IMG/VR virus record: IMGVR_UViG_3300047440_000580
Coordinates: 2,332 to 66,331 of that record
From: a virus
DNA: 64,000 nt
Strand: one strand, 5' to 3'
Of this stretch, positions 10,372 to 44,488 are shown one piece after another. Below the pieces are notes generated by a model. That model made no database searches. It saw nothing but the letters and a program-made list of their open reading frames with translations, and was not told the origin of the DNA. Both the position numbers and the translations under genes were made by a program. Numbering within the stretch: the stretch's first letter is position 1; every line of letters starts with the position of its first letter.

Positions 10372-11397
10372 CTACTCTCCCTTGAACCTTTGATTGAATC
10401 TTTCCGCTTGGACCTGCCAGCTTTCCGAAACCGCCTGGTCCACCGCGTTCCTACAGATCTGAGAAGCCGCCGGGGTGCCGACCAGCTCTACTATCTTGTC
10501 GATCCATTGGTTGACAGGCCGCATGACGCCCGTCTCCATGTCTCTGACGTACTCTGAGGGGGTGCCCATGCCCGGTGGATAGAGGACCAGGCTGCCGGCG
10601 GCCTGCGCCTGGCGAGCGGCTCGTGAACTCGGCTCTTGGAAGGTCGACGAGTACGGCAGGATGCCCGTCTCATTGAAAAGCTTCCAGAGTTCCGGTCCGT
10701 TGCTCACGTTTCCGTGCCAGACGATCGACGGATGGACGATCGGGGACATGTTGGTGTAGTCCGGATGGCAGACGTGAAGCTTGAACCGACGGTCCCTGGC
10801 GTGCAGTTTCACGGCCAATTGCACCGCCCCGATCAGCCCGCGGCCCGGATCCGAGCTCCAGAGCATGGCGTGGGGGTCCTTGGAGGGCGACGGATGGTAG
10901 ATCTCCGGGTCCACGCCGAAGGTTAGCTCCGTTTCGATCAGGTTCAGGCACTGGGAAGGGTCCAGACCGAGCTCTACACCGACCTGGTTCGCGTGCCAGC
11001 CCTTGTAGCAGATGATCTTCTTCAGCTTCCCCGAAGAGAGAGCCGCCCGGACGTCCCGCTTCCAGTCTTCTGGGTAGGTGTGGTCACAGGTGTGGAGGAC
11101 ATTGATGGCGTCCTTGTGGTAGAGCTCCGGAAAGAACTTCCGCCAGTGTACCACCACGTCGTAGCGGTGATGGTCGTGGCCGCCCATGTAGCTCAGCTCG
11201 GCGTCGTTGCGGAACTTGCCGCCAGACAGAAACTCCTCGGAGGCTCCGATGTAGTTCGTGGTCGTGACCGTGACGTCGTTCCCACCAAGCTCCGCGTAGT
11301 AGAACGGGATCTCCAGGTGGTACTTGTTGAACATGCGGACGTAGCCAGCTCCGAGCTTCTGGTAGTCCCGCTTGACCCCGACGAACGCGATCTTCAC
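10372..11397 (-). CDS. glycosyltransferase, GT-B (GT4-like)
   Basis: WSSDPGRGL...YSSTFQEPSSRAARQAQAAG. Confidence 0.7.
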   Translation of the reverse strand: MKIAFVGVKRDYQKLGAGYVRMFNKYHLEIPFYYAELGGNDVTVTTTNYIGASEEFLSGGKFRNDAELSYMGGHDHHRYDVVVHWRKFFPELYHKDAINVLHTCDHTYPEDWKRDVRAALSSGKLKKIICYKGWHANQVGVELGLDPSQCLNLIETELTFGVDPEIYHPSPSKDPHAMLWSSDPGRGLIGAVQLAVKLHARDRRFKLHVCHPDYTNMSPIVHPSIVWHGNVSNGPELWKLFNETGILPYSSTFQEPSSRAARQAQAAGSLVLYPPGMGTPSEYVRDMETGVMRPVNQWIDKIVELVGTPAASQICRNAVDQAVSESWQVQAERFNQRFKGE

Positions 11398-29207: not shown

Positions 29208-29282
29208 TGGTAGCGCGTAGGGGTTTTGATCCCCTTCCTTCAGGTTGAGAACCTGACAACCTAGCCAGTAGTCGAACGCGCC
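29208..29282 (-). tRNA. tRNA-Glu(CTC)
   Basis: loop TT-CTC-AA; T-loop ATCAAAA; CCA encoded. Confidence 0.85.
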
Positions 29283-29288
29283 GTAAGA

Positions 29289-29400
29289 TGTGCCGTCGTG
29301 GAGTCGAACCACGAACCAGTGGCAGCAGTCCGTTCCTTTTCGCCTCCCAAGGCTACTTCAGGACAGAAAGTGGGATCTGTTGCTGGCCCGCCGGGCGGAC
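29289..29400 (-). ncRNA. tRNA-like RNA: T-arm plus long irregular helix, no anticodon arm
   Basis: CGTGG-TTCGACT-CCACG T-arm; CCAG/CAACAG pairs with CTGCTG/CTGG; imperfect acceptor. Confidence 0.45.
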
Positions 29401-29402
29401 TT

Positions 29403-29475
29403 TGGAGGCCATCCAGGGAGTCGAACCCTGCCCACGTGGTTTGCAATCACGTTTGCCCAGCCAGGACTGACGGCC
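29403..29475 (-). tRNA. tRNA-Cys(GCA)
   Basis: loop TT-GCA-AA; U73; CCA. Confidence 0.85.
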
Positions 29476-29489
29476 AATGTTGACGATGT

Positions 29490-29564
29490 TGGAGCCCCCT
29501 CGGAGAATCGAACTCCGACCGCCTGATTACGAAACAGGCATGCTACCATTAGCACCAAGAGGGC
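29490..29564 (-). tRNA. tRNA-Thr(CGT)
   Basis: loop TT-CGT-AA; CCA. Confidence 0.9.
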
Positions 29565-29565
29565 G

Positions 29566-29652
29566 TGGCGGAAAGTAGAGGAATCGAACCTCAGTCGTAA
29601 GACCCAAACGCTTAGCAAGCGCCGCTGGAGTTCCCAGGCCAGATTACTTTCC
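29566..29652 (-). tRNA. tRNA-Ser(GCT)
   Basis: loop TT-GCT-AA; long V-arm; G73; CCA. Confidence 0.9.
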
Positions 29653-29710
29653 AAACCTACCTGGCCTGCGAGCCAGGTGTCCTAGAAGTCGCAGCCCCTA
29701 GGATCTTCAG

Positions 29711-29778
29711 TCGCTCAGGTGAGAATCGAACTCACTGCGCTGGGCTTATGAGGCTCAGCTGGTTCCAAACCCAGAGCG
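29711..29778 (-). tRNA. tRNA-Met/Ile2(CAT)
   Basis: loop CT-CAT-AA; D-arm GGTT-TGG-AACC; no CCA. Confidence 0.7.
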
Positions 29779-29867
29779 GTTGCGGGGGTAGGAGTTGAAC
29801 CTACCATTGCAAGCGTTAGCTCGCGAGGGGTATGAGCCCTCATTGGCCACCTGGGCCTGTCCCCGCT
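29779..29867 (-). tRNA. initiator-type tRNA(CAT) with long variable arm
   Basis: A1:A72 mismatch, GGG/CCC anticodon stem, loop CT-CAT-AC, extra arm GCGAGC-TAAC-GCTTGC. Confidence 0.75.
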
Positions 29868-29879
29868 ATAACTTGAAAC

Positions 29880-29953
29880 TGGAGCCCCGGGAGAGAGTCG
29901 AACTCTCGATTCCTCCTTACCAAGGAGGCGGTTTGCCGTTGACCTACAGGGGC
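29880..29953 (-). tRNA. tRNA-Thr(GGT)
   Basis: loop TT-GGT-AA; CCA. Confidence 0.9.
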
Positions 29954-30036
29954 ATTCTCGAACACCTACGAACGCTTCAGAGCCTTCCCAACCACCTAGG
30001 CCATGGATGTACCTGGCCTGGTGTCACAACACTTCG

Positions 30037-30112
30037 TGGAGCCCCCGGTGAGAATCGAACTCACGTCCCAGGTTTACAAGGCCCGTATTCTTAGCCACTG
30101 AACTACGGGGGC
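30037..30112 (-). tRNA. tRNA-Thr(TGT)
   Basis: loop CT-TGT-AA; CCA. Confidence 0.9.
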
Positions 30113-30172
30113 GATGCGGCTGGGTTCGCGGGCAAGACCACGACCACTTAGCTCCCTGGCGTCGGGAGTACC

Positions 30173-30247
30173 TGGAGCGGGTAGCGGGAATCGAACCCGC
30201 CATTTCTGGTTGGAAGCCAGACGTGTTGCCACTAGCACTACACCCGC
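30173..30247 (-). tRNA. tRNA-Gly(TCC)
   Basis: loop CT-TCC-AA; U73; CCA. Confidence 0.9.
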
Positions 30248-30252
30248 AAAAT

Positions 30253-30350
30253 TGGGAAGATCGGCCGGTATCGCACCGGGCCAGGACGTCTCCCGGCTCA
30301 TCGCGTTTTCGGATTCACAATCCGCTGACTTTTCGTAGTCCACGACCTTC
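30253..30350 (-). tRNA. atypical tRNA-His(GTG) with about 29-nt variable region
   Basis: G-1:C73 8-bp acceptor GAAGGTCG/CGATCTTC, loop TT-GTG-AA, extra hairpin GCCGGGA-GACG-TCCTGGC, T-loop TGCGATA, CCA. Confidence 0.7.
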
Positions 30351-30423
30351 AGAGCGGGATGCGGGAATCGAACCCGCGCTTCAGGCTTGGGAAGCCCGTT
30401 CGCTACCACTACAACAATCCCGC
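30351..30423 (-). tRNA. tRNA-Gly(CCC)
   Basis: loop TT-CCC-AA; no CCA. Confidence 0.85.
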
Positions 30424-30544
30424 AACGTGTGACAACCGGCTTTGACCCCTTGCAAGGGGGTTCCCACGCCACATCCCGCTGGATAATCGCGAATCACCAG
30501 ACGAGAAGGCCGGCCAAGCTTTAAGACCTCCAAAAGGGCCACAC

Positions 30545-30618
30545 TGGTGCGGGTAGAGAGAATCGAACTCTCGCTTCGGACTTGGCAAGCCCGTTCGCTA
30601 CCATTACAACATACCCGC
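30545..30618 (-). tRNA. tRNA-Gly(GCC)
   Basis: loop TT-GCC-AA; A73; CCA. Confidence 0.9.
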
Positions 30619-30622
30619 GAAA

Positions 30623-30690
30623 TGGAGGGGACCCGACGGCTCTCACGTCTTCGAGCGGTTGGGCGCCGCCAGGTGTTTCCCACTGTCCCC
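30623..30690 (-). ncRNA. highly degenerate tRNA-Gly-like cloverleaf with CCA
   Basis: GGGGAC/GTCCCC acceptor, U73, CCA; loop CG-CCC-AA; T-loop TGAGAGC. Confidence 0.5.
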
Positions 30691-30691
30691 G

Positions 30692-30766
30692 TGGTCTGAG
30701 AGGTGGGATTCGAACCCACGGCCTCCTGGCTCCAGACCAGGCCGTCTACCGCTGACTTACTCCCAG
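30692..30766 (-). tRNA. tRNA-Pro(TGG)
   Basis: loop TC-TGG-AG; CCA. Confidence 0.85.
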
Positions 30767-30823
30767 ATGATGCCCTGTTCGTCCCACCACACTGCGTGGG
30801 CACTGCGTCCAGGCTACGTAGAG

Positions 30824-30896
30824 TCGGGATGGTGAGTTTCGATCTCACGACCTCGTGTCCCCCAGACACGCGCGCTCCCAGCTGCGCCACACCCCG
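30824..30896 (-). tRNA. tRNA-Pro(GGG)
   Basis: loop CT-GGG-GG; T-loop ATCGAAA; no CCA. Confidence 0.85.
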
Positions 30897-30905
30897 TTGC
30901 TGAAT

Positions 30906-30980
30906 TGGTCTGGATGGGTGGAATCGAACCACCTACGTCCTCGCTCCGAAGGAGGGTGTCTACCAATGACTTACATCCAG
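30906..30980 (-). tRNA. tRNA-Pro(CGG)
   Basis: loop TT-CGG-AG; CCA. Confidence 0.8.
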
Positions 30981-30981
30981 A

Positions 30982-31050
30982 TGGTCCCGAATGCCGAGTT
31001 GAACGGCTCCCCCGGTTTGACCCGGTGTGCTGACGTTACACTAACTAAGG
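30982..31050 (-). pseudogene. degenerate tRNA (Asp-like, 6-nt anticodon loop)
   Basis: T-arm GCCG-TTCAACT-CGGC, CCA, mismatched acceptor, loop GTCAAA. Confidence 0.5.
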
Positions 31051-31052
31051 GA

Positions 31053-31129
31053 TGGTCGGAAATACACGATTCGAACGTGCGGCCTCTCGGACCCGAACCG
31101 AGCGCTCTACCAGGCTGAGCTAATTTCCG
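31053..31129 (-). tRNA. tRNA-Pro(CGG), second copy
   Basis: loop TT-CGG-GT; CCA. Confidence 0.9.
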
Positions 31130-31133
31130 GGAC

Positions 31134-31511
31134 TTACAACTTTGAAGGCATCAGAGGGGGGAGGGCTGGAGGGACATTGTCTGTTGCAACGCTCCCGTCC
31201 GTTTCGCTTGGCCCTTCCCAGATGGTGCCGTATCCTTGCCTGTACGCCATGTCCAGGACCTTCTGCATCTTGGCGCAGTTTTCCTTGGTCATGCTCGTGC
31301 AGTCCCACCCCATGTCGTGCTCCCAGCCGAGCTGGAACACGTACTTGAAGGCGGTCCAGACTCGCTTCCAGAATCCCTTCCAGTTGCGGTGCTGGTAGTG
31401 AAGAGTCATGCCGATCTCGACGTCGTACTCGGCGACGGCCATGTGACCCTTGGTCCCACAGTCGCACTCGATGTACTCACGCGTGATCTCTACTTGAGGC
31501 TTCACTTTCAT
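31134..31511 (-). CDS. hypothetical protein inside tRNA array
   Basis: 125 aa; A of ATG is the terminal A of tRNA-Gln CCA. Confidence 0.7.
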   Translation of the reverse strand: MKVKPQVEITREYIECDCGTKGHMAVAEYDVEIGMTLHYQHRNWKGFWKRVWTAFKYVFQLGWEHDMGWDCTSMTKENCAKMQKVLDMAYRQGYGTIWEGPSETDGSVATDNVPPALPPLMPSKL

Positions 31512-31585
31512 GGTTCCCCCACAACGGTTCGAACGTTGATCGTCTGAGTCAGAGTCAGGTGTCCTGCCAGTTGGACGATAGGGGA
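31511..31585 (-). tRNA. tRNA-Gln(CTG)
   Basis: loop CT-CTG-AC; CCA. Confidence 0.9.
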
Positions 31586-31589
31586 ATAA

Positions 31590-32402
31590 CTATTCTTCTA
31601 CGAGCTCCGAGAAATCCTCGGGCTTGGCATTCTTCGCGTCTTCGCAGCTCTTCATGAGCTCCTTCTCCTTCTCGTCGCGACGATTGGGAGACCAGAAGAA
31701 GCAGAGCTCGTTGAAGAGTCCGTAGAGGAACTCGCCGAGCTCGTAGGTGACGCGGACGTCCGTGTTCTCGTAGCCGTCCGTCGTCCTGTCCGAGACCCAA
31801 CTGAGCCCGCGCTCAAACTTCTTGGAGCCCTTCCGCTTGAAGCCCATCTTCTTGGGCTTCTGCTTCTTCCACTTGTGCTTGCACAGCACCACGGTCTGCT
31901 TCATCGTGAGAGGCAGGTTGAGCAGGTAGGCCCAGGGCGTGAATTCGATCGCGTAGGAGTTTCCACGCTTCTCCAAGGGTACGTCCTCGCATCCTTCCTC
32001 CCAGTATGCTCCGATTCCGTGAGCAGAGACCGTATGGTCCTGCATGTCCCATTTCTCGATGTCGTCGTAGTTCGACATCTCGTAGTACTTGTAGACTTCG
32101 ATCGCCGTCAGCTTCGACTTGCGGTCGGGGTCGCGCTTGGCCACCACGTTCTCGTCCTTGAGGTACTCGTCCAGGTTCGCGTGACAGAGCTTCGCGACCA
32201 GGTCCAGCACCAGCGGATCGAACTTCTTGAGGACGGCGACCAGATCCTTCAGCCGGACCTTGCCCTTGATCTCCAGGCCGTGGTGCCAGGCTTCGAGGAA
32301 GAGGTGAGTCGTGGTGTTGATCTTCCACGTCTTGTACTTCTTCTTCTTGCCGTCCCACTCGCTGGCCCAGAACCCGTCCTTCTTGAGGATGACTTTGTCC
32401 AT
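31590..32402 (-). CDS. hypothetical protein inside tRNA array
   Basis: 270 aa, phage-like codon pattern; ATG abuts tRNA-Arg CCA. Confidence 0.75.
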   Translation of the reverse strand: MDKVILKKDGFWASEWDGKKKKYKTWKINTTTHLFLEAWHHGLEIKGKVRLKDLVAVLKKFDPLVLDLVAKLCHANLDEYLKDENVVAKRDPDRKSKLTAIEVYKYYEMSNYDDIEKWDMQDHTVSAHGIGAYWEEGCEDVPLEKRGNSYAIEFTPWAYLLNLPLTMKQTVVLCKHKWKKQKPKKMGFKRKGSKKFERGLSWVSDRTTDGYENTDVRVTYELGEFLYGLFNELCFFWSPNRRDEKEKELMKSCEDAKNAKPEDFSELVEE

Positions 32403-32478
32403 TGGTACTCCTATCCAGAGTCGAACTGGAATCCCACCCTTAGGAGGGGCGTGCTCGGATCCATTGAGCTATAGGAGC
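32403..32478 (-). tRNA. tRNA-Arg(CCT)
   Basis: loop CT-CCT-AA; CCA. Confidence 0.9.
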
Positions 32479-32492
32479 ATTATACCACAGAT

Positions 32493-32939
32493 TCATTTCT
32501 TTGTAACGGCAATCGCATACATTTCGCCGTTTGGCTTACGCCACCTGCGGAGAAGGCCTCTGATATCTAGTACGTGGATACCATTTTCCCGCTTGTTCTT
32601 TTTCGTCCGCTCGGAGTCCACGATCAAGAACCTGTCCCCGATCGTGCAGGCGATCACCGCCCAGTGGGTGTCCCCGTCGCAGGCCATGATGAGAGGGCAT
32701 CCCTTGCCGAGGTACTTCTTCAGGGCCGCCTTGGCGTGGGTGGCCTTGGTCGTCTCGTACACCTCTGAAGTGTAGCCGAGGTGATCCAAGGCATTCAACA
32801 CCCCTGCCTCCGTGGTGCCGTCGTCGTCCGTGCCGGCGAGCTGGCGTAGACGGTGTTCCCCGACATTCTTCCCGAAGAGCTTCAGGACGTTCCGGATGGA
32901 CGCCGCCCCGCATGAGTTCTTCGTCTCCTGGAACCTCAT
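32493..32939 (-). CDS. C39-family cysteine peptidase
   Basis: QE..NSCGAAS, GTT, HWAVI, LIVDS catalytic pattern. Confidence 0.8.
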   Translation of the reverse strand: MRFQETKNSCGAASIRNVLKLFGKNVGEHRLRQLAGTDDDGTTEAGVLNALDHLGYTSEVYETTKATHAKAALKKYLGKGCPLIMACDGDTHWAVIACTIGDRFLIVDSERTKKNKRENGIHVLDIRGLLRRWRKPNGEMYAIAVTKK

Positions 32940-32949
32940 ACGATAAATA

Positions 32950-33025
32950 TGGTCTCCTCGGAGGGATTCGAACCCCCACCCCTGGGCTTAGAAGTCCCGG
33001 ATCTGGCCACTTGAATTACGAGGAG
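32950..33025 (-). tRNA. tRNA-Arg(TCT)
   Basis: loop CT-TCT-AA; CCA. Confidence 0.85.
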
Positions 33026-33026
33026 G

Positions 33027-33101
33027 TGGTGGAGCCACCGGGAATCGAACCCGGGTCTGAACCTTGCGAAGGTCCCGTTCTACCGCTGTCACTATGGCCC
33101 C
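33027..33101 (-). tRNA. tRNA-Ala(CGC)
   Basis: loop TT-CGC-AA; G3:U70; CCA. Confidence 0.9.
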
Positions 33102-33337
33102 GTGAAGAACTCTTCGAACTTGTCCAGAACCAGACTTTCCGAGCGGTCGTACTTCTCGCAGAAACCGTCTTGGTGGACGCTGAGGAACCGCGTCTCTTTG
33201 TGCTTCGCGTGTTCGTAGGTGTTCTCGGCGCAGTAGCCGAAGTTCCCTAGGGGGAAGTCACCGTGTCGACATGTTTTGCACGTAGGACTGATTCGGTACT
33301 TCAACTCCCGCAACACTTTCAGCTTGTTCTGGTCCAT
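33092..33337 (-). CDS. Cys-rich hypothetical protein inside tRNA array
   Basis: 81 aa CKTCRH..C..C; ATG overlaps tRNA-Val CCA; stop inside tRNA-Ala 5' end. Confidence 0.65.
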   Translation of the reverse strand: MDQNKLKVLRELKYRISPTCKTCRHGDFPLGNFGYCAENTYEHAKHKETRFLSVHQDGFCEKYDRSESLVLDKFEEFFTGP

Positions 33338-33812
33338 GGTGTCCCCGGATGGAATCGAACCATCGTCTCCACCTTGTCACGGTGGTGTGCTCCCATTTTA
33401 CCACGGGGACTTCTTTTTGTACAACGGTCATGATGATCGGCTCGAACCCGTTGTGCTTCAGGAGTCGCGCGGTCTTGATCGTCAGATCTACACATCCTCG
33501 CCAGATGCCTGGGTCGGACGCCTTCCTCTTGATCACCCAGCGTCTTCCGACGTTGGCGCCGTAGGGCCCGTGGTCGACCACCTTGGCCACTACCACCTTG
33601 CCTGTCCGGGGGTTTTCGAGCTTCACCCGGGTGCCGCAGGGGAGGTCCCTGTGGGCGATCCCGATGTCGTCCGGTCCGAGCTCTCTGTGGAGGCAGACTG
33701 CTTCGCCTCCCTTCAGTTCGTCGTCCTCCCATCCGAAGATCGATGCGTTGCACGGAGTCGGGGGAGGGGGCGCGCTCATGAAGAGAGCGATCAAAGCTGT
33801 CAGTAGATCCAC
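33258..33812 (-). CDS. RlpA-like (DPBB) lytic transglycosylase family protein
   Basis: AHRDLPCGTRVKLEN..GKVVVAKVVDHGPY...VDLT; N-terminal hydrophobic segment; frame runs through tRNA-Val. Confidence 0.7.
   Translation of the reverse strand: MDLLTALIALFMSAPPPPTPCNASIFGWEDDELKGGEAVCLHRELGPDDIGIAHRDLPCGTRVKLENPRTGKVVVAKVVDHGPYGANVGRRWVIKRKASDPGIWRGCVDLTIKTARLLKHNGFEPIIMTVVQKEVPVVKWEHTTVTRWRRWFDSIRGHHGPEQAESVAGVEVPNQSYVQNMSTR
33337..33410 (-). tRNA. tRNA-Val(GAC)
   Basis: loop GT-GAC-AA; CCA. Confidence 0.85.
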
Positions 33813-33838
33813 ATCGGACCAGCCTTTCTGCCTGAGAG

Positions 33839-33913
33839 TGGTGGAGCTAACGGGGGTCGAACCCGTAATACCGGTCTGCCGAACCAGCGTGTTCCCATTA
33901 GCACTATAGCCCC
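33839..33913 (-). tRNA. tRNA-Ala(GGC)
   Basis: loop TC-GGC-AG; G3:U70; CCA. Confidence 0.85.
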
Positions 33914-33942
33914 ATTGTAACACGGAAACTTCTAAAAGTAAA

Positions 33943-34017
33943 TGGTGCCCTCCCACGGAACCGACCCGTGATCCCTGGGGTTTCAATCCAGTGCTCTTCC
34001 GATTGAGCTAAGAGGGC
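33943..34017 (-). tRNA. tRNA-Phe(GAA)
   Basis: loop TT-GAA-AC; T-loop GTCGGTT; CCA. Confidence 0.8.
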
Positions 34018-34026
34018 ATGATGAAG

Positions 34027-34102
34027 TGGTGACGCGTATGGGTTTTGATCCCATTCCTCCTGCTTGAAAGGCAGGCCACCTAGCCAGTAGTAAGAACGCG
34101 CC
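34027..34102 (-). tRNA. tRNA-Glu(TTC)
   Basis: loop CT-TTC-AA; T-loop ATCAAAA; CCA. Confidence 0.85.
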
Positions 34103-34103
34103 G

Positions 34104-34181
34104 TGGCCCCACGTACGGGAATCGAACCCGTCTTCCTCTTCCGTGACAGGGAAGTGCCGCCTGCCAGGCGGCTCACATGGG
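34104..34181 (-). tRNA. tRNA-Asp(GTC)
   Basis: loop CT-GTC-AC; G73; CCA. Confidence 0.85.
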
Positions 34182-34187
34182 AAATCT

Positions 34188-34286
34188 TGGTACCCCCGTA
34201 GGGAATCGAACCCTAGTCGTCACGCTTAAAAGGCGTGCTTCCGTCGCTGCCCTTAGGTGAGCAGGCCGTATCCATCGGGCGGGGGC
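34188..34286 (-). tRNA. tRNA-Lys(TTT) with greatly expanded D region
   Basis: loop CT-TTT-AA; about 42 nt between acceptor and anticodon stems incl. hairpin CTGCTC-ACCTAA-GGGCAG; CCA. Confidence 0.75.
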
Positions 34287-34287
34287 A

Positions 34288-34377
34288 TGGTACACGCGCT
34301 AGGGATCGAACCTAGTCTGAGCCGGTAATCTGCCGGAAAGGATCTATAAGGTCCCTCTGACTCCAAGTCTCGCGTGC
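34288..34377 (-). tRNA. tRNA-Ile(TAT) with extra arm carrying a GAT loop
   Basis: loop CT-TAT-AG; second arm CCGG-CAGATTA-CCGG; D-arm GACT-TGG-AGTC; CCA. Confidence 0.7.
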
Positions 34378-34378
34378 G

Positions 34379-34454
34379 TGGTGAACCAGGTGGGGGTCGA
34401 ACCCACAGCCAATGGATTAAGAATCCACTGCTCTGCCAGTTGAGCTTCTGGTCC
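34379..34454 (-). tRNA. tRNA-Lys(CTT), canonical
   Basis: loop TT-CTT-AA; CCA. Confidence 0.9.
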
Positions 34455-34457
34455 AAA

Positions 34458-34545
34458 TGGTCCCCCGACTGGGAATCGAACCCAGATCACACGGCTTAAG
34501 AGGCCGGTCGATGTGCCGTTAGGCTTCCAATCATCGGGCCAGGGG
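34458..34545 (-). tRNA. tRNA-Lys(CTT) with expanded D region
   Basis: loop CT-CTT-AA; CGATG/CATCG stem enclosing GCC-TAAC-GGC hairpin; CCA. Confidence 0.75.
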
Positions 34546-34548
34546 ATG

Positions 34549-34627
34549 TGGCGTATCCTCTAGGAATCGAACCTAGCTTGACGTGAGTTAACAGCTCACC
34601 GCAATCAACCAGACATGCCAAGGATAC
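34549..34627 (-). tRNA. tRNA-Asn(GTT)
   Basis: loop CT-GTT-AA; G73; CCA. Confidence 0.85.
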
Positions 34628-34631
34628 AAAG

Positions 34632-34707
34632 TGGCTCCAGGGGCAGGCTTCGAACCCGCATCTTCTCCATTAACAGTGGAGCGGCTTACCAGTTAGCCTA
34701 CCTTGGA
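34632..34707 (-). tRNA. tRNA-Asn(GTT), second copy
   Basis: loop CT-GTT-AA; CCA. Confidence 0.9.
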
Positions 34708-34708
34708 A

Positions 34709-34786
34709 TGGTACCCCAGACGGGATTCGAACCCGCACATCCTGCGGTCTGAACGCAGTGACTCCTACCAATTGGTCTACCGGGGC
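34709..34786 (-). tRNA. tRNA-Leu(CAG), short variable loop
   Basis: loop TT-CAG-AC; CCA. Confidence 0.85.
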
Positions 34787-34789
34787 AAA

Positions 34790-34866
34790 TGCAGGGGCGT
34801 GCTACACATCATACACCAACTCGTGCATAGAGGTCACGAGTCCTGGGTCGGTCCAGGTTCTCCCCT
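34790..34866 (-). ncRNA. cloverleaf-like RNA of unclear identity
   Basis: AGGGG/CCCCT closing stem, CCTGG/CCAGG arm, ACTCGTG-ACCTCTATG-CACGAGT arm; no TTC T-loop. Confidence 0.4.
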
Positions 34867-34868
34867 TC

Positions 34869-34945
34869 TGTGCTCTTGATGAGATTCGAACTCACACCTG
34901 TCAGCCTTCTCAGGACTGTGCCTCTACCAATTGGGCTACAAGAGC
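34869..34945 (-). tRNA. tRNA-Leu(GAG), short variable loop
   Basis: loop CT-GAG-AA. Confidence 0.85.
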
Positions 34946-34984
34946 GTCGCCGGTGTTTTAGCTGCTTTACCGGTAGCAGTATAG

Positions 34985-35063
34985 TGGTACACCCGGCGGG
35001 ATTCGAACCCACACTGTTCCTGATTCGTAGTCAGGTGGCCTATCCAGTTGGCCGGACGGGTGC
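34985..35063 (-). tRNA. tRNA-Arg(ACG)
   Basis: loop CT-ACG-AA; CCA. Confidence 0.9.
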
Positions 35064-35064
35064 A

Positions 35065-35142
35065 TGGTGTCCCTGGCGAGATTCGAACTCGCACTGATCC
35101 ACCTTCGGAGGGTGGTGGCCTATCCAGTTGGCCGACAGGGAC
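35065..35142 (-). tRNA. tRNA-Arg(CCG)
   Basis: loop CT-CCG-AA; CCA. Confidence 0.9.
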
Positions 35143-35146
35143 AAAT

Positions 35147-35430
35147 TGAAGTGGAACGTAAGCGGGGTTCTGTTCAAGAACGATCATTCGTCTGGGATGA
35201 CTGTCACCAGTCACCTCTAGCTCTCAACCCGTCAGCATCGGCCGGACCAGCCCCTGACTGCTCGAGATTGCTCCAGATGGACTCCCCCGTTTCAGCCGAG
35301 CATTACCTCGGTTCGTCTCTGTTGAGAGTATCTCCAGGTCACCCCGGACCAGTCGTTAGCTGGCATCCTGTCCTATGGAGCCCCGACTTTCCTCTGGTTT
35401 GCGAAGCCAGCGATCGTTGCATCCACTTCA
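35147..35430 (-). ncRNA. rnpB: RNase P RNA, compact bacterial A-type
   Basis: P1 TGAAGTGGA/TCCACTTCA; CR-I GAGGAAAGTCGGGG; CR-V ACAGAACCCCGCTTA (P4 covaries); P2, P3, P5, P7-P9, P12, P15-P18 identifiable; P13/P14/P19 absent. Confidence 0.92.
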
Positions 35431-35435
35431 AAACT

Positions 35436-35509
35436 TGGTAGTCCCTGAGGGAGTTGAACCCACGTAGACGGTTTGTAGGACCGCCACTCTACCGTTGAGT
35501 TAAGGGACC
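35436..35509 (-). tRNA. tRNA-Val(TAC)
   Basis: loop CC-TAC-AA; CCA. Confidence 0.85.
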
Positions 35510-35517
35510 GAAAAAAT

Positions 35518-35610
35518 GCAGGTTGGCTCGCCGTCGACGTTGTCCCGAAGGAGACGGTAGAGCGGATTACCCGGATGCTCTGCATCCCAGACTCACGAGG
35601 TCTGACCTGC
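35518..35610 (-). ncRNA. unknown multibranch structured RNA
   Basis: GCAGGT/ACCTGC closing stem; CAGAC-CTCGTGA-GTCTG; GGATGC/GCATCC; CCGTC..TCC-TTCG-GGA..GACGG. Confidence 0.45.
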
Positions 35611-35614
35611 AAAT

Positions 35615-35688
35615 TGGTACGCCATGAAGGAATCGAACCCTCGTCACCCGGTAATCGGCCAGGCGCACTACCATTGTGCTAACGGCGC
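35615..35688 (-). tRNA. tRNA-Ile(GAT)
   Basis: loop CC-GAT-TA; CCA. Confidence 0.8.
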
Positions 35689-35702
35689 ATGAGAGAAAAG
35701 AC

Positions 35703-35773
35703 GGCCGGCGTCCTTCCGCTAGACTACCAGGGACCGAGGTCCCCGGGCGGGATTCGAACCCGCGTTTCCGGCC
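35703..35773 (-). ncRNA. circularly permuted tRNA / YrlA-like tRNA-mimic module
   Basis: GGCCGG-AAAC-[GCGGG TTCGAAT CCCGC]-[CCGGGGAC CTCG GTCCCTGG]-TA-[GTCT AGCGGA AGGAC]-G-CCGGCC. Confidence 0.8.
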
Positions 35774-35776
35774 CAG

Positions 35777-35850
35777 TGCTTGCAGAGAGATTCGAACTCT
35801 CAGGAAGGTAGGTTTGAGCTACCTATGTCTACCTGTTGCATCATGCAAGC
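35777..35850 (-). tRNA. tRNA-Leu(CAA), short variable loop
   Basis: loop CT-CAA-AC; no CCA. Confidence 0.85.
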
Positions 35851-35931
35851 GATGCGAATACCCGGCCCCAACCCGTCGCCGGTATTCTGACAGTCCCCAC
35901 CCTAGACTGTCTTGCCCAGTGCTGAGGAAAT

Positions 35932-36003
35932 TGGCATGTGCTGTAGGAATCGAACCCACTCCTGGAGTTTTGGAGACTCTTTGGACACCATGTCCTAGCA
36001 CAT
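35932..36003 (-). tRNA. tRNA-Trp(CCA)
   Basis: loop CT-CCA-AA; short D-loop; G73; CCA. Confidence 0.85.
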
Positions 36004-36004
36004 A

Positions 36005-36080
36005 TGGGGTGATCGACGGGGTTCGAACCCGCGCTACGTGATCCACAATCACGCGTGCTTCCTGTTACACTACGAACACC
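36005..36080 (-). tRNA. tRNA-His(GTG), canonical
   Basis: G-1:C73; loop TT-GTG-GA; CCA. Confidence 0.9.
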
Positions 36081-36083
36081 ATA

Positions 36084-36169
36084 TGGTGCGCGGGCTGAGA
36101 GTCGAACTCAGCTGCCACGAGGGAACCGGTTTACAGCCGGCCCAGGGAACCGTCCCTGTCGTCCCGCGC
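36084..36169 (-). tRNA. tRNA-Tyr(GTA)
   Basis: loop CT-GTA-AA; long V region; CCA. Confidence 0.9.
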
Positions 36170-36226
36170 ATATGCGGCCCGAAGGCCGCTTCATCGTCAA
36201 CTATTCGATTGTCAAGTACTGCTCAG

Positions 36227-36297
36227 TGGAGCCGACGGGAATCGAACCCGCCACGGTCTGCTTGCAAGGCAGTCCTGTCACCTTGAATCTCGACCCC
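36227..36297 (-). tRNA. tRNA-Ala(TGC)
   Basis: loop CT-TGC-AA; G3:U70; weak D-arm; no CCA. Confidence 0.8.
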
Positions 36298-36310
36298 AAG
36301 AAACCAAATC

Positions 36311-36401
36311 TGGCGGAAGAAGGAGGTCTCGATCCCCAGCCGACTCACGCCGACCACACCGCTTTCGAAACGGGTCCCAGTCCAAACCGGGTTCTTCTTC
36401 C
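36311..36401 (-). tRNA. tRNA-Ser(CGA)
   Basis: loop TT-CGA-AA; long V-arm; T-loop ATCGAGA; CCA. Confidence 0.85.
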
Positions 36402-36403
36402 AG

Positions 36404-36491
36404 TGGCGGAGAGAGGAGGTATCGATCCCCAGGCGCTTTCACGCTCGAGCCGCCTTCCAAGCGGTCCCGGTCCCTGACCGGTTCTCTCTCC
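36404..36491 (-). tRNA. tRNA-Ser(GGA)
   Basis: loop TT-GGA-AG; long V-arm; T-loop ATCGATA; CCA. Confidence 0.85.
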
Positions 36492-36492
36492 G

Positions 36493-36578
36493 TGGCGGAG
36501 GGCGGAGGATTCGAACCCCTGCCTGACGGTACCATCCCGGTGTTCAAAGCCGGTCGCAGTCCAACTGCGGCACCCTCC
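36493..36578 (-). tRNA. tRNA-Ser(TGA)
   Basis: loop TT-TGA-AC; long V region; CCA. Confidence 0.85.
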
Positions 36579-36583
36579 GTTTT

Positions 36584-36757
36584 TTATTCTCCGATCACCC
36601 CCTTCGCTTCATCATCCAGCGGCAGCAGTCTGTCCCGGTGCCGCGCCATCTTTCGTTTTCCGTCCGTGACGATGAAGAGTCCGGTCGAGGTCGGTCCACT
36701 GAGGATCTCGACCTCGATGTTCCCTTCATCATCCACCCCGAAGGTTAGGGCCTTCAT
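36584..36757 (-). CDS. small hypothetical protein
   Basis: MKALTFGVDDEG..., TGATG coupling with upstream gene. Confidence 0.55.
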   Translation of the reverse strand: MKALTFGVDDEGNIEVEILSGPTSTGLFIVTDGKRKMARHRDRLLPLDDEAKGVIGE

Positions 36758-37248
36758 CAGGACCTCGCGAGGTACCCCTTCACGATGTGGTCGGCAGCGT
36801 GGCTTGCAGCCCATGCGTCCGGCTTGATCACCGCGTTGAAGCCCTGCCCGAGAACCAGGCCCACCATCTCCTGCACGACATCCGAGGACTTGTACTGCGT
36901 GTCCGGGTTGGCGTCGATGTGGATGGTCAGCTTGTTGGCCTCCGGGATCTCCGAGTTGAGCTCCATGCCGAGCTCGACGGACATCCAGGCTTCCTTCAAG
37001 AGCCTCTCCCTCAGCGACCGGATACGAGTCATCCGCTCACGGCTGAAGAAGCACCGACCTCCCTTGCCCGGGGTGAGGATGATCACCACCGTGATGTACT
37101 CCGTCACGTTCCCCGCGTTCTGCGAGTCCGTGCCGATGACGAGTTCACGGTCCGGCGATTCAGCCATCAGGGCCCGTATCTCGGCCTTGAGGTCCACCGT
37201 CTTCTTTCCTACCATCGTCTTCCAGGTCTTCTCGATCATGGTCGCCAC
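36757..37248 (-). CDS. RNase H-like YkuK (DUF458) family protein
   Basis: LVIGTDSQ, RLLKEAWMS, IHIDAN, IKPDAWAASHAADH. Confidence 0.85.
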   Translation of the reverse strand: MATMIEKTWKTMVGKKTVDLKAEIRALMAESPDRELVIGTDSQNAGNVTEYITVVIILTPGKGGRCFFSRERMTRIRSLRERLLKEAWMSVELGMELNSEIPEANKLTIHIDANPDTQYKSSDVVQEMVGLVLGQGFNAVIKPDAWAASHAADHIVKGYLARS

Positions 37249-37269
37249 CTTTCCTGTGTAGCCTGGTAC

Positions 37270-37344
37270 TGGTTCCGAGAGAGGGACTCGAACCCCCGCC
37301 GCCCTGGTTCAAAGCCAGGTGTCCTGCCGTTAGACCATCCCGGA
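37270..37344 (-). tRNA. tRNA-Gln(TTG)
   Basis: loop CT-TTG-AA; CCA. Confidence 0.9.
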
Positions 37345-38139: not shown

Positions 38140-38197
38140 CCGCGACTTGTGAATCCATTATAAGTGGACTCACACGGGTTGTAAAGGAAAAAGTGCT

Positions 38198-43135: not shown

Positions 43136-43328
43136 TGCTCGGATCGCGCGTCAAGTCCTGGACCTCGGGCAGTCCGAAGATGAGCGTCCCTTCGTCGAAG
43201 ATGTCCTTCTGGCGGAGCATGCGGATCCCGTCCTCCTTGAAGAGCTCGAGAGCCCGCTCGTACTCGGACTCGTCGAAGGAGGCGTAGCCGGACCCACTCT
43301 TGAAGACGACCTTGTAGCGCATGTTCAT
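43125..43328 (-). CDS. hypothetical protein
   Basis: MNMRYKVVF..., ATGA overlap with rtcB stop. Confidence 0.55.
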   Translation of the reverse strand: MNMRYKVVFKSGSGYASFDESEYERALELFKEDGIRMLRQKDIFDEGTLIFGLPEVQDLTRDPSNEN

Positions 43329-44488
43329 CCCTTCACGCAGAGCACTTGCTTCAGCTCTGCCACGATCTCCACCAGGTCGGACTGGTTCGCCATGACCTGA
43401 TCGATGTCCTTGTAGGCGCCCGGGATCTCGTCCAGGACCGCCTCGTCCTTCCGGCACTCGACGCCCGCCGTCTGGGCGATCATGTCGTCCAGCGTGAACG
43501 AACGCTTGGCCTTGCCGCGGCTCATCCGGCGGCCCGCCCCGTGGGACGCGCTGCAGAACGACTCCGGGTTACCGACTCCCCGAACGATGTAGGACTTGGT
43601 TCCCATCGATCCCGGGATGATGCCGAGCTCTCCGGCCTGGGCCGAGATCGCCCCCTTGCGGGTCACGATCAGGTCCTCACCGAAGTGGTTCTCCTCCGAC
43701 ACGTAGTTGTGGTGACAGAGGATCGGCTTCTCGAACTTCACCTTCCCGAAGTGCTCGATCATGATCTGCTTGTAGATTTCGAACATGGCCTTGCGGTTCA
43801 GGAACGCGTACTCTTGCGCCCAGTACAGGTCGTGCCGGTACGCCTCCATCTCCGGGGTCCCAGCCAGGAAGACCGCGAGGTCCTTGTCCGGGAGGCCCGT
43901 GTTGTGGGTCAGCTTCTGGGCGACCGCCATGTGGATCTCGGCCAGGGTCTTGCCGATGTTCCGGCTGCCCGAGTGGAGCATCATCCACACGTTTCCCTCG
44001 GTGTCCAGGCAGAGCTCGATGAAGTGGTTTCCGCCACCGAGCGTACCCACCTGCTTCCGGGCCTTGCCCTCGAGGTCACGGACCCCACGGCTCAGGTCGC
44101 CGAACTTCCTGAAGAGGTCGTTGGACGCCTTGACCACGGCGTTGGTGTGCTCGTTGAACCCGACCGGGATCCGCTCCTCGAGGTCGAGGCGGATGCGCTT
44201 CAGGCTGTCCGGCAGGTCGCTGGCCTTCAGGTCCGTCTTGATCGCTCCCATGCCGCAGCCGATGTCGACTCCCACGGCCGCCGGCGAGACCGCGCCCTTC
44301 ATGGCGATGACGGACCCGACGGTCGCGCCCTTGCCGAAGTGGACGTCGGCCATCGAGGCCACGTGGTGGAAGACCCACGGCAGGGCCGCGATGTTCTTCA
44401 GTTGGTCGAGGGCGACCGACTCTACCTCGTGGATCGGTGCCCAGAGGTGGATCGGTACGTTCTTCCCGTTCAGCAATGCGATTGACAT
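43325..44488 (-). CDS. rtcB: RtcB RNA ligase
   Basis: ADVHFGKGATVG, VGVDIGCG, GTLGGGNHFIE, HSGSR, HNY, SHGAGR, DEIPGAYK. Confidence 0.97.
   Translation of the reverse strand: MSIALLNGKNVPIHLWAPIHEVESVALDQLKNIAALPWVFHHVASMADVHFGKGATVGSVIAMKGAVSPAAVGVDIGCGMGAIKTDLKASDLPDSLKRIRLDLEERIPVGFNEHTNAVVKASNDLFRKFGDLSRGVRDLEGKARKQVGTLGGGNHFIELCLDTEGNVWMMLHSGSRNIGKTLAEIHMAVAQKLTHNTGLPDKDLAVFLAGTPEMEAYRHDLYWAQEYAFLNRKAMFEIYKQIMIEHFGKVKFEKPILCHHNYVSEENHFGEDLIVTRKGAISAQAGELGIIPGSMGTKSYIVRGVGNPESFCSASHGAGRRMSRGKAKRSFTLDDMIAQTAGVECRKDEAVLDEIPGAYKDIDQVMANQSDLVEIVAELKQVLCVKG

Follow-up and report, generated by a model that had tools for sequence, protein, structure and literature searches.

A putative class-A RNase P RNA gene embedded in the tRNA array of a large uncultured soil phage

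RNase P RNA is, to our knowledge, regarded as a housekeeping gene universal to cells and organelles, and a sequence resembling it between two tRNA genes of a viral record raised the question of what this element is and what it might do there. The stretch of DNA that was analyzed (the window, 64,000 nucleotides) comprised bases 2332-66331 of the IMG/VR virus record IMGVR_UViG_3300047440_000580, which is 73,655 bases long; unless another contig is named, coordinates refer to the window and the features described lie on its minus strand. Our preferred reading, to which we assign a probability of about 0.75, is that the locus encodes a functional catalytic RNA of a bacterial-type RNase P within the tRNA operon of a soil phage, with its catalysis, protein partner, and benefit being inferred.

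A search with the Rfam covariance model, the check proposed in the initial annotation of this DNA, provided a significant match. RF00010 (RNaseP_bact_a) was detected by cmscan with 166.9 bits (gathering score, 100 bits) and an E value of 4.7e-52, the alignment extended over model positions 1-367 of 367 without truncation, and the match was reproduced on the whole 73,655-base record. The gene identified in this way spans 288 nt (35143-35430) and is of class A without P13/P14; its P1-bounded core, 35147-35430, is the same element that had been annotated, bounded by the last P1 pair. The flanking genes also had been named correctly. On one side, tRNA-Val(UAC) (35436-35509; ARAGORN and Rfam), with an encoded CCA, is separated from the first P1 base by 5 nt (AGUUU, 35431-35435), and on the other the +1 base of tRNA-Arg(CCG) (35065-35142) follows 4 nt (AUUU, 35143-35146) past the last P1 pair. 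The exact 23-nt CR-I pattern had no other occurrence in IMG/VR. We conclude from the conservation of its sequence and predicted structure that the element is truly an RNase P RNA of class A; its catalytic activity is inferred from the same conservation, with no cleavage assay.

Helices were mapped onto the RNA by script, with the RNA numbered from position 35430, and 87 of the 89 pairs across the mapped helices were standard. We located P1 (10 bp), P2 (7 bp), P3 (7 bp, with one mismatch and a 3-nt loop), P5 (4 bp), P7 (5 bp), P8 (4-5 bp), P10 (2 bp), P11 (5 bp), P12 (5 bp), P15 (4 bp), P16 (5 bp), and P17 (4 bp), of which P3 and P12 are minimal, along with P9 (6 bp, 35333-35348, also supported by covariation) and P18 (8 bp, 35196-35215), each capped by a GUGA tetraloop (35339-35342 and 35204-35207, respectively). 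The P4 pseudoknot is formed by CR-I, GAGGAAAGUCGGGG (35381-35394), as its 5' strand and CR-V, ACAGAACCCCGCUUA (35159-35173), as its 3' strand; it contains eight standard pairs, a bulged U45, and a flipped pair, G47-C267 in place of the usual C-G. The P6 pseudoknot (4 bp) pairs GUCC in L17 (35244-35247) with GGAC at 35370-35373. All helices listed in the initial annotation, including the GUGA-capped P18 and the P6 pairing given there as possible, were found as described, as were its strings for CR-I and CR-V.

The combination of P15-P17, the P6 pseudoknot, and the L15 GGU corresponds to the C-domain of class A, instead of which class B RNase P RNAs possess P5.1 and P15.1. The 3' side of L15 reads GGGU (35227-35230), and the GGU motif within it (G202, G203, and T204) was invariant in the six-sequence alignment described below; this motif presumably pairs with the 3'-CCA of the pre-tRNA, as it does in class-A enzymes such as E. 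coli M1 RNA. In the S-domain, P7-P12 were mapped, the junction sequences ACAGAGACGAA and CUGAAA were found, and many columns were invariant. J11/12 and J12/13, which recognize the tRNA T-loop, bear conserved family sequences, as do J5/15 and J18/2, and P2 joins CR-V with no insert. P13/P14 are missing, as had been noted: 43 model positions were matched by 0 residues in the Rfam alignment, and J12/13 (CUGAAA) leads directly to CGG and the 3' strand of P11 at the deletion junction (35289-35290). The same deletion is common to five related RNAs introduced below (L182, L044, L045, L187, and L206). The P13/P14 brace is a feature of structures of the E. coli and T. maritima type and is not universal. 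Its absence is not decisive for membership in class A because P13/P14 are missing in various bacteria (PMC8172020). Plain minimum free energy folding, a method unsuited to pseudoknotted RNA, recovered only some of the helices and gave a z-score of only -1.9 versus shuffled sequences.

The source record is classified as viral in IMG/VR and has a CheckV completeness of 36%, which for 73,655 bases suggests a genome size of ~200 kb. PHROG matches in the window included a baseplate wedge protein (phrog_219, 2.7e-23), a DinG-like DNA helicase (phrog_2488, 1e-93), and a PD-(D/E)XK exonuclease, and a gene for the tRNA-repair RNA ligase RtcB (PHROG 1075, 6.7e-139; Pfam RtcB, 9e-125) lies 8 kb upstream of the ribozyme at 43325-44488; these genes and the virus record are as expected for a phage of the Caudoviricetes and agree with the earlier description of the RNA as phage-encoded. 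No capsid or terminase genes were present in the window fragment, and no PHROG or Pfam family match was obtained for most of its ORFs, including most neighbors of the ribozyme. The best GenBank phage matches of the helicase included the jumbo phages Tunturi_5 (309 kb, 33% identity) and Bacillus phage G (498 kb) as well as three uncultured phages of ~640 kb; Tunturi_5, the best-matching cultured phage by helicase, infects an acidobacterium. When the 12-kb locus was compared with GenBank phages by megablast, no match was obtained. The source is a large uncultured soil phage, here summarized as a jumbo phage. No host was assigned, and the P4 variant hints at a host in the Actinomycetota.

A contig that is chimeric with the host chromosome at this locus would have refuted the initial annotation, and the locus is not such a chimera. 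A separate metagenome assembly (L182; 10.8 kb, 23 tRNAs) was collinear with window positions 43322-33349 at ~75% identity, and its RNase P RNA (162.7 bits) is flanked by tRNA-Val and tRNA-Arg in the same order. Twenty studies contributed at least 20 DNA runs, from soil or rhizosphere, in which the locus also was found; these runs contained 52-98% of the 31-mers sampled from a 4.5-kb stretch spanning the ribozyme gene. The independent assembly of L182 with identical gene order and the recovery of the locus from these runs rule out a chimera. The G+C content is continuous (0.56 in the gene, 0.58 in the tRNA array, and 0.61-0.62 in the flanks).

ARAGORN identified an array of 35 co-oriented tRNA genes (29208-37344) with the ribozyme inside it, in agreement with its annotated placement. 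The 3'-CCA is encoded in 30 of the 35 tRNAs, and six pairs of neighboring tRNAs in the array are only one base apart. Non-canonical tRNA-like genes that the initial annotation had placed in gaps of the array were not called by ARAGORN. The array also contains a gene for a YkuK-type RNase H-like protein (36757-37248; Pfam PF04308, 1.4e-33) and one for a protein with a C39-family peptidase domain (32493-32939; PF03412, 6.5e-13). The best promoter-like site upstream of the array lies at 38157-38185 (TTTACA, 17 nt, TATAAT; 11/12, a consensus match only), and a consensus search detected none between this site and the ribozyme. As a separate observation, the 105-nt spacer between tRNA-Ile(GAU) and tRNA-Val(UAC) (35510-35614) gave a closed three-way junction when folded (-40.5 kcal/mol, z -3.3) and shares 91% identity with its counterpart in L182, in a region of ~75% identity, with compensated changes in two hairpins. 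No Rfam family matched it, and the spacer probably encodes a small structured RNA, conserved but of unknown kind.

The initial annotation had also suggested a search of related phage contigs for conservation, and L182 was found to keep the gene between the same tRNAs with a compensated fold. The window and L182 RNAs are 83.6% identical and differ at 17 pairs, 13 of which show two-sided compensated changes and two of which are kept by a one-sided change, leaving two broken. By using a signature pattern for the P13/P14-less junction, we obtained a further four RNase P RNAs that lie within tRNA arrays (L044, L045, L187, and L206), of which L044 is carried by IMGVR_UViG_3300032770_000004 (G043), a complete 169,962-base phage genome with terminal repeats. 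The L206 contig contains a GOLLD RNA (RF02032; 359-823, minus strand, 182.9 bits) in addition to its array-embedded RNase P RNA (11114-11397, minus strand, 140.2 bits).

In an alignment of the six array-embedded RNAs (window, L182, L044, L045, L187, and L206), 86.4% of the cells were paired, versus 36-43% when the 3' partners were slid by 1-3 columns, and two-sided changes were seen in 44 of 87 pairs; none of 500 shuffled alignments reached any of the five measures that were used. All eight P4 pairs were standard in all six copies; seven of them never varied, and the flipped pair was G-C in five sequences and C-G in one. Two-sided changes affected three of the four P6 pairs and six of the eight P18 pairs. 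The tested structure was derived from one of the aligned sequences and thus was somewhat favored, and the count of pairs between the window and L182 is independent of the distant alignments. Two RNAs were left out of the covariation set: L188, which scored below the Rfam cut-off, and L139, a short form of different architecture that was binned with an Acidimicrobiaceae metagenome-assembled genome, has no tRNAs nearby, keeps P13, and lacks P18. As judged from these substitution patterns, the RNA fold is under selection.

Contigs from four soil metatranscriptome runs were compared with window positions 34800-35800. One run (X25) yielded a 228-nt contig wholly within 35175-35402 with one mismatch. 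A second (X28) yielded a 286-nt contig corresponding to the full length of 35145-35431, with 14 substitutions and four indels that indicate its origin in a relative, and the ends of this contig lie no more than 2 nt from the predicted gene ends. A 284-nt contig from a third run (X29) derives from another relative and has an insertion in P12. The flanks at 34800-35140 (340 nt) and 35440-35800 (360 nt) were not covered by the gene contigs of these three runs, with only conserved tRNA pieces of 19-35 nt being found. The flanks consist mostly of tRNAs, which assemble poorly, and they are a weak silent control. The contigs are assemblies that do not show the exact ends, strand, or level of the RNA, and DNA carry-over is not excluded. 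The results support, without proving, a discrete stable RNA of the length of the gene, and the ends of the X28 contig agree with excision by the tRNA-maturation machinery.

The statement that RNase P RNA is not a routine phage gene was substantiated by three comparisons. RF00010 was not detected in any of 42 IMG/VR records with a related helicase, some of them 93%, 84%, and 70% complete, or in any of the three best-matching GenBank phage records (Tunturiibacter phage Tunturi_5 and two uncultured ~640-kb phages). Of 50,697 GenBank phage records, no more than 7 resembled any of three different RNase P RNAs in blastn searches; these are all metagenome-derived or mis-filed, with none from a cultured phage and none annotated as a phage gene. 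The gene thus is dispensable in this phage group, given its sporadic occurrence and its absence from all 42 helicase relatives. A full-text literature search uncovered no description of a virus-encoded RNase P RNA; most subscription journals were outside its scope, and the absence of such a description is unproven. In a 2024 review of RNase P, phages appear only as sources of substrates (PMC11143913).

Two features that might set the molecule apart proved to be shared with cells. The P4 change had been described as compensated on both strands, and that compensation is real; the flip is not peculiar to the phage, with the same 19-nt CR-I variant occurring in at least 120 cellular species genomes, mostly Acidimicrobiia along with other Actinomycetota and some Clostridium. 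We therefore rejected the flip as a phage-specific compensatory innovation. The P13/P14-less junction signature was found at 61 metagenome loci, most of which, on ~50 contigs, look cellular and lie outside tRNA arrays, and the lack of P13, P14, and P18 is reported to be "not uncommon" in bacteria (PMC8172020). Loss of P13/P14 as a phage-specific minimization was rejected as well because most of the signature loci lie outside tRNA arrays and on the basis of the same paper. The initial annotation's description of a minimized phage RNA could not be upheld, as both traits are ordinary cellular variants. It follows that the molecule is an ordinary compact class-A RNA and that its location is the unusual part. 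In seven of the other contigs with the signature (at most 198 kb each), which form a group of their own, the P13/P14-less RNase P RNA starts immediately downstream of a single tRNA-Gly(CCC), and no tRNA array is nearby. Nine others from soil, along with further contigs of the same type, combine the P13/P14-less form with a normal CCGGG P4 and have a tRNA-Met ~2.1 kb upstream; they probably represent one cellular lineage with the compact form as its housekeeping gene.

The ancestry of the window RNA was assessed by comparison with 95 cellular RNAs of the P4-variant type, to which it is at most 63% identical, whereas it is 67.5% identical to the L044 RNA. In a maximum-likelihood tree, the window RNA, L182, and L044 formed a supported clade (98/91) outside of the cellular group (97/96), and these relationships indicate that the window RNA is not a fresh capture from cells. 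The cellular set in the tree comprised P4-variant RNAs only, and because of this bias no donor can be named. The complete genome that carries L044 has no detectable homologue of the window phage's helicase or RtcB, which indicates that two unrelated phages possess sister RNase P RNAs. Such sisters could have arisen by phage-to-phage transfer or by capture from related, unsampled hosts. A more far-reaching idea, which we advance only tentatively and would not bet on at even odds, is that a virus-borne RNase P RNA lineage moves between unrelated large phages along with tRNA-array modules and supplies them with an enzyme for tRNA maturation that lies outside host control of RNase P or resists it. 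If this idea is true, a ribozyme of the universal translation apparatus would for the first time be known as a viral auxiliary gene.

Assuming that the preferred reading is correct and that this is a working RNase P RNA gene, the following scheme can be inferred from its position and predicted structure. The ribozyme would be transcribed within the polycistronic tRNA precursor, a probable arrangement because the 5-nt gap leaves no room for a promoter. Its 3' end would be created by the RNase P cut at the 5' end of tRNA-Arg(CCG), and its 5' end would be freed when the upstream tRNA-Val is trimmed to its encoded CCA. The fold of the resulting RNA of ~286 nt into a class-A core with P4, P6, the L15 GGU, L9, and L18 and without P13/P14 is borne out by sequence and covariation. 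The RNA most likely would bind the host RnpA protein and cleave the 5' leaders of the phage pre-tRNAs that encode CCA. With CCA encoded in 30 of 35 tRNAs and one-nucleotide gaps between several neighbors, cleavage by RNase P would by itself leave both ends of adjacent tRNAs almost mature. We count the fit of these CCA-ending substrates to the invariant L15 GGU in favor of this scheme, with the role of the GGU again taken from M1 RNA. The presumed benefit is that RNase P capacity would be raised or secured while the 35-gene array is expressed and pre-tRNAs are produced in a burst.

With regard to the protein partner, no match to RnpA (PF00825) at E ≤ 1 was obtained in the 73,655-base record (36% complete) or in the complete 169,962-base genome that carries L044, and the RnpA proteins of bacteria are interchangeable between species (PMC4919922). 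For these two reasons the use of host RnpA is the economical reading, and the earlier suggestion that the phage borrows this protein fits the absence of PF00825 from both sequences; binding itself is inferred. Since the record represents only ~36% of the genome, the missing part could encode a phage RnpA or some other cofactor. The short P3 and P12 and the missing P13/P14 brace may lower the activity of the RNA alone.

Several other explanations of the locus were considered. The suspicion that it is an artefact, either an assembly chimera with host DNA or a cellular tRNA island instead of a phage, draws on the large share of ORFs without a PHROG or Pfam match and on the absence of capsid and terminase genes from the window, but it is scarcely tenable: the same junctions occur in the independent L182 assembly and in at least 20 runs, only gaps of 5 nt and 4 nt separate the ribozyme from its co-oriented tRNA neighbors, the G+C content is continuous (0.56-0.62 across the gene, array, and both flanks), and the baseplate wedge match (2.7e-23), the phage-type helicase (1e-93), and the IMG/VR/CheckV call all identify a virus. 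The RNA could instead be a neutral passenger, that is, a copy of a host rnpB acquired with the tRNA genes and not yet decayed. Its sporadic distribution among related phages and its P4 variant, common to Actinomycetota, would suit such an origin. We nevertheless consider it very improbable, given that the RNA is no more than 63% identical to the sampled cellular RNAs, clusters with the RNA of another phage rather than with those of cells, and is found in RNA libraries; moreover, it occupies the same site in the ~75%-identical L182, where the RNA is 83.6% identical and compensated pairs outnumber broken ones by 13 to 2.

Two further explanations accept that the RNA is functional and differ from the preferred reading in what it does. 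As a decoy or regulator, it would sequester host RnpA or compete for pre-tRNA and so shut down host tRNA maturation, or, as no more than a structured spacer, it would direct how the array is processed; any binding of RnpA does imply sharing with the host RNA, and the position between tRNAs is conserved. The whole catalytic core, the P6 pseudoknot, the L15 GGU, and the substrate-binding junctions J11/12 and J12/13 would be superfluous in a decoy, yet all are conserved and the helices covary, and a blockage of RNase P would hit the phage's own 35 tRNAs too, so we judge this explanation improbable. The RNA also might act without the host protein, either alone or with an unrecognized phage cofactor, in which case phage tRNA maturation would not rely on host RNase P at all. 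RnpA is indeed absent from both the record and the complete L044-bearing genome, most ORFs neighboring the ribozyme lack a family match that could identify them, and class-A RNAs are catalytic alone in vitro, as established for M1 RNA. That activity requires unphysiological salt, however, an unaided fold would be weaker without P13/P14 and with so short a P3 and P12, and no candidate cofactor was identified, whereas the host must have an RnpA and these proteins are interchangeable (PMC4919922). On balance this possibility is unlikely, and we retain the working RNase P RNA that uses host RnpA as the preferred reading.

The molecule is a member of a known family, and a core-translation ribozyme that is carried by a phage, conserved, and apparently expressed seems not to have been described. 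Genes of the translation apparatus already known from viruses include those for tRNAs, tmRNA, synthetases, and ribosomal proteins, and a phage-borne RNase P RNA that is expressed and constrained would add a catalytic RNA to them. Its presence raises the questions of whether host RNase P is limiting or targeted during infection, by what mechanism a ribozyme excises itself from a tRNA precursor, and how small a natural class-A enzyme that works with a foreign RnpA can be. Cell-free processing of tRNA arrays could make use of this compact 286-nt RNA together with its natural multi-tRNA substrate.

Comparison with known systems places the phage RNA close to E. coli M1 RNA (rnpB) and the Thermotoga maritima P RNA, with which it shares P1-P12, P15-P18, the P4 and P6 pseudoknots, and CR-I/CR-V, and it resembles class-A RNAs (RF00010) in general by the bulged U of P4, the L15 GGU, and the GNRA loops on P9 and P18. 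Unlike cellular class-A RNAs, which measure ~340-390 nt, it is 288 nt long, has no P13/P14, and has a very short P3 and P12; it also is virus-encoded, and tRNA genes adjoin it at distances of 5 nt and 4 nt, the 5-nt gap being too short for a promoter of its own. In contrast to the bacterial RNase P holoenzyme, its rnpA partner gene is absent from the phage record. The natural P13/P14-less class-A RNAs of cells (PMC8172020) likewise have the brace deleted and P12 retained, but they stand alone on cellular-looking contigs, whereas the phage copy resides in a tRNA array and groups with a phage RNA. Archaeal type A RNase P RNA also is without P13/P14 and P18 (PMC4919922). The GUCGGGG/CCCCGC variant of P4 and the identical 19-nt CR-I are shared with RNAs of Actinomycetota (Acidimicrobiia, Coriobacteriia, and Actinomycetes); those RNAs, however, score 200-290 bits, carry P13/P14, and mostly have 260-300 nt between CR-I and CR-V, compared to 207 nt in the phage RNA, which is at most 63% identical to them. 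A parallel in terms of setting is provided by the theta ribozymes, minimal HDV-like ribozymes of gut phages (PMC10879173), which also are phage catalytic RNAs situated beside phage tRNAs and concerned with tRNA maturation. Theta ribozymes are small and self-cleave in cis, whereas the phage RNase P RNA belongs to a family of trans-acting, multiple-turnover endonucleases that remove 5' leaders.
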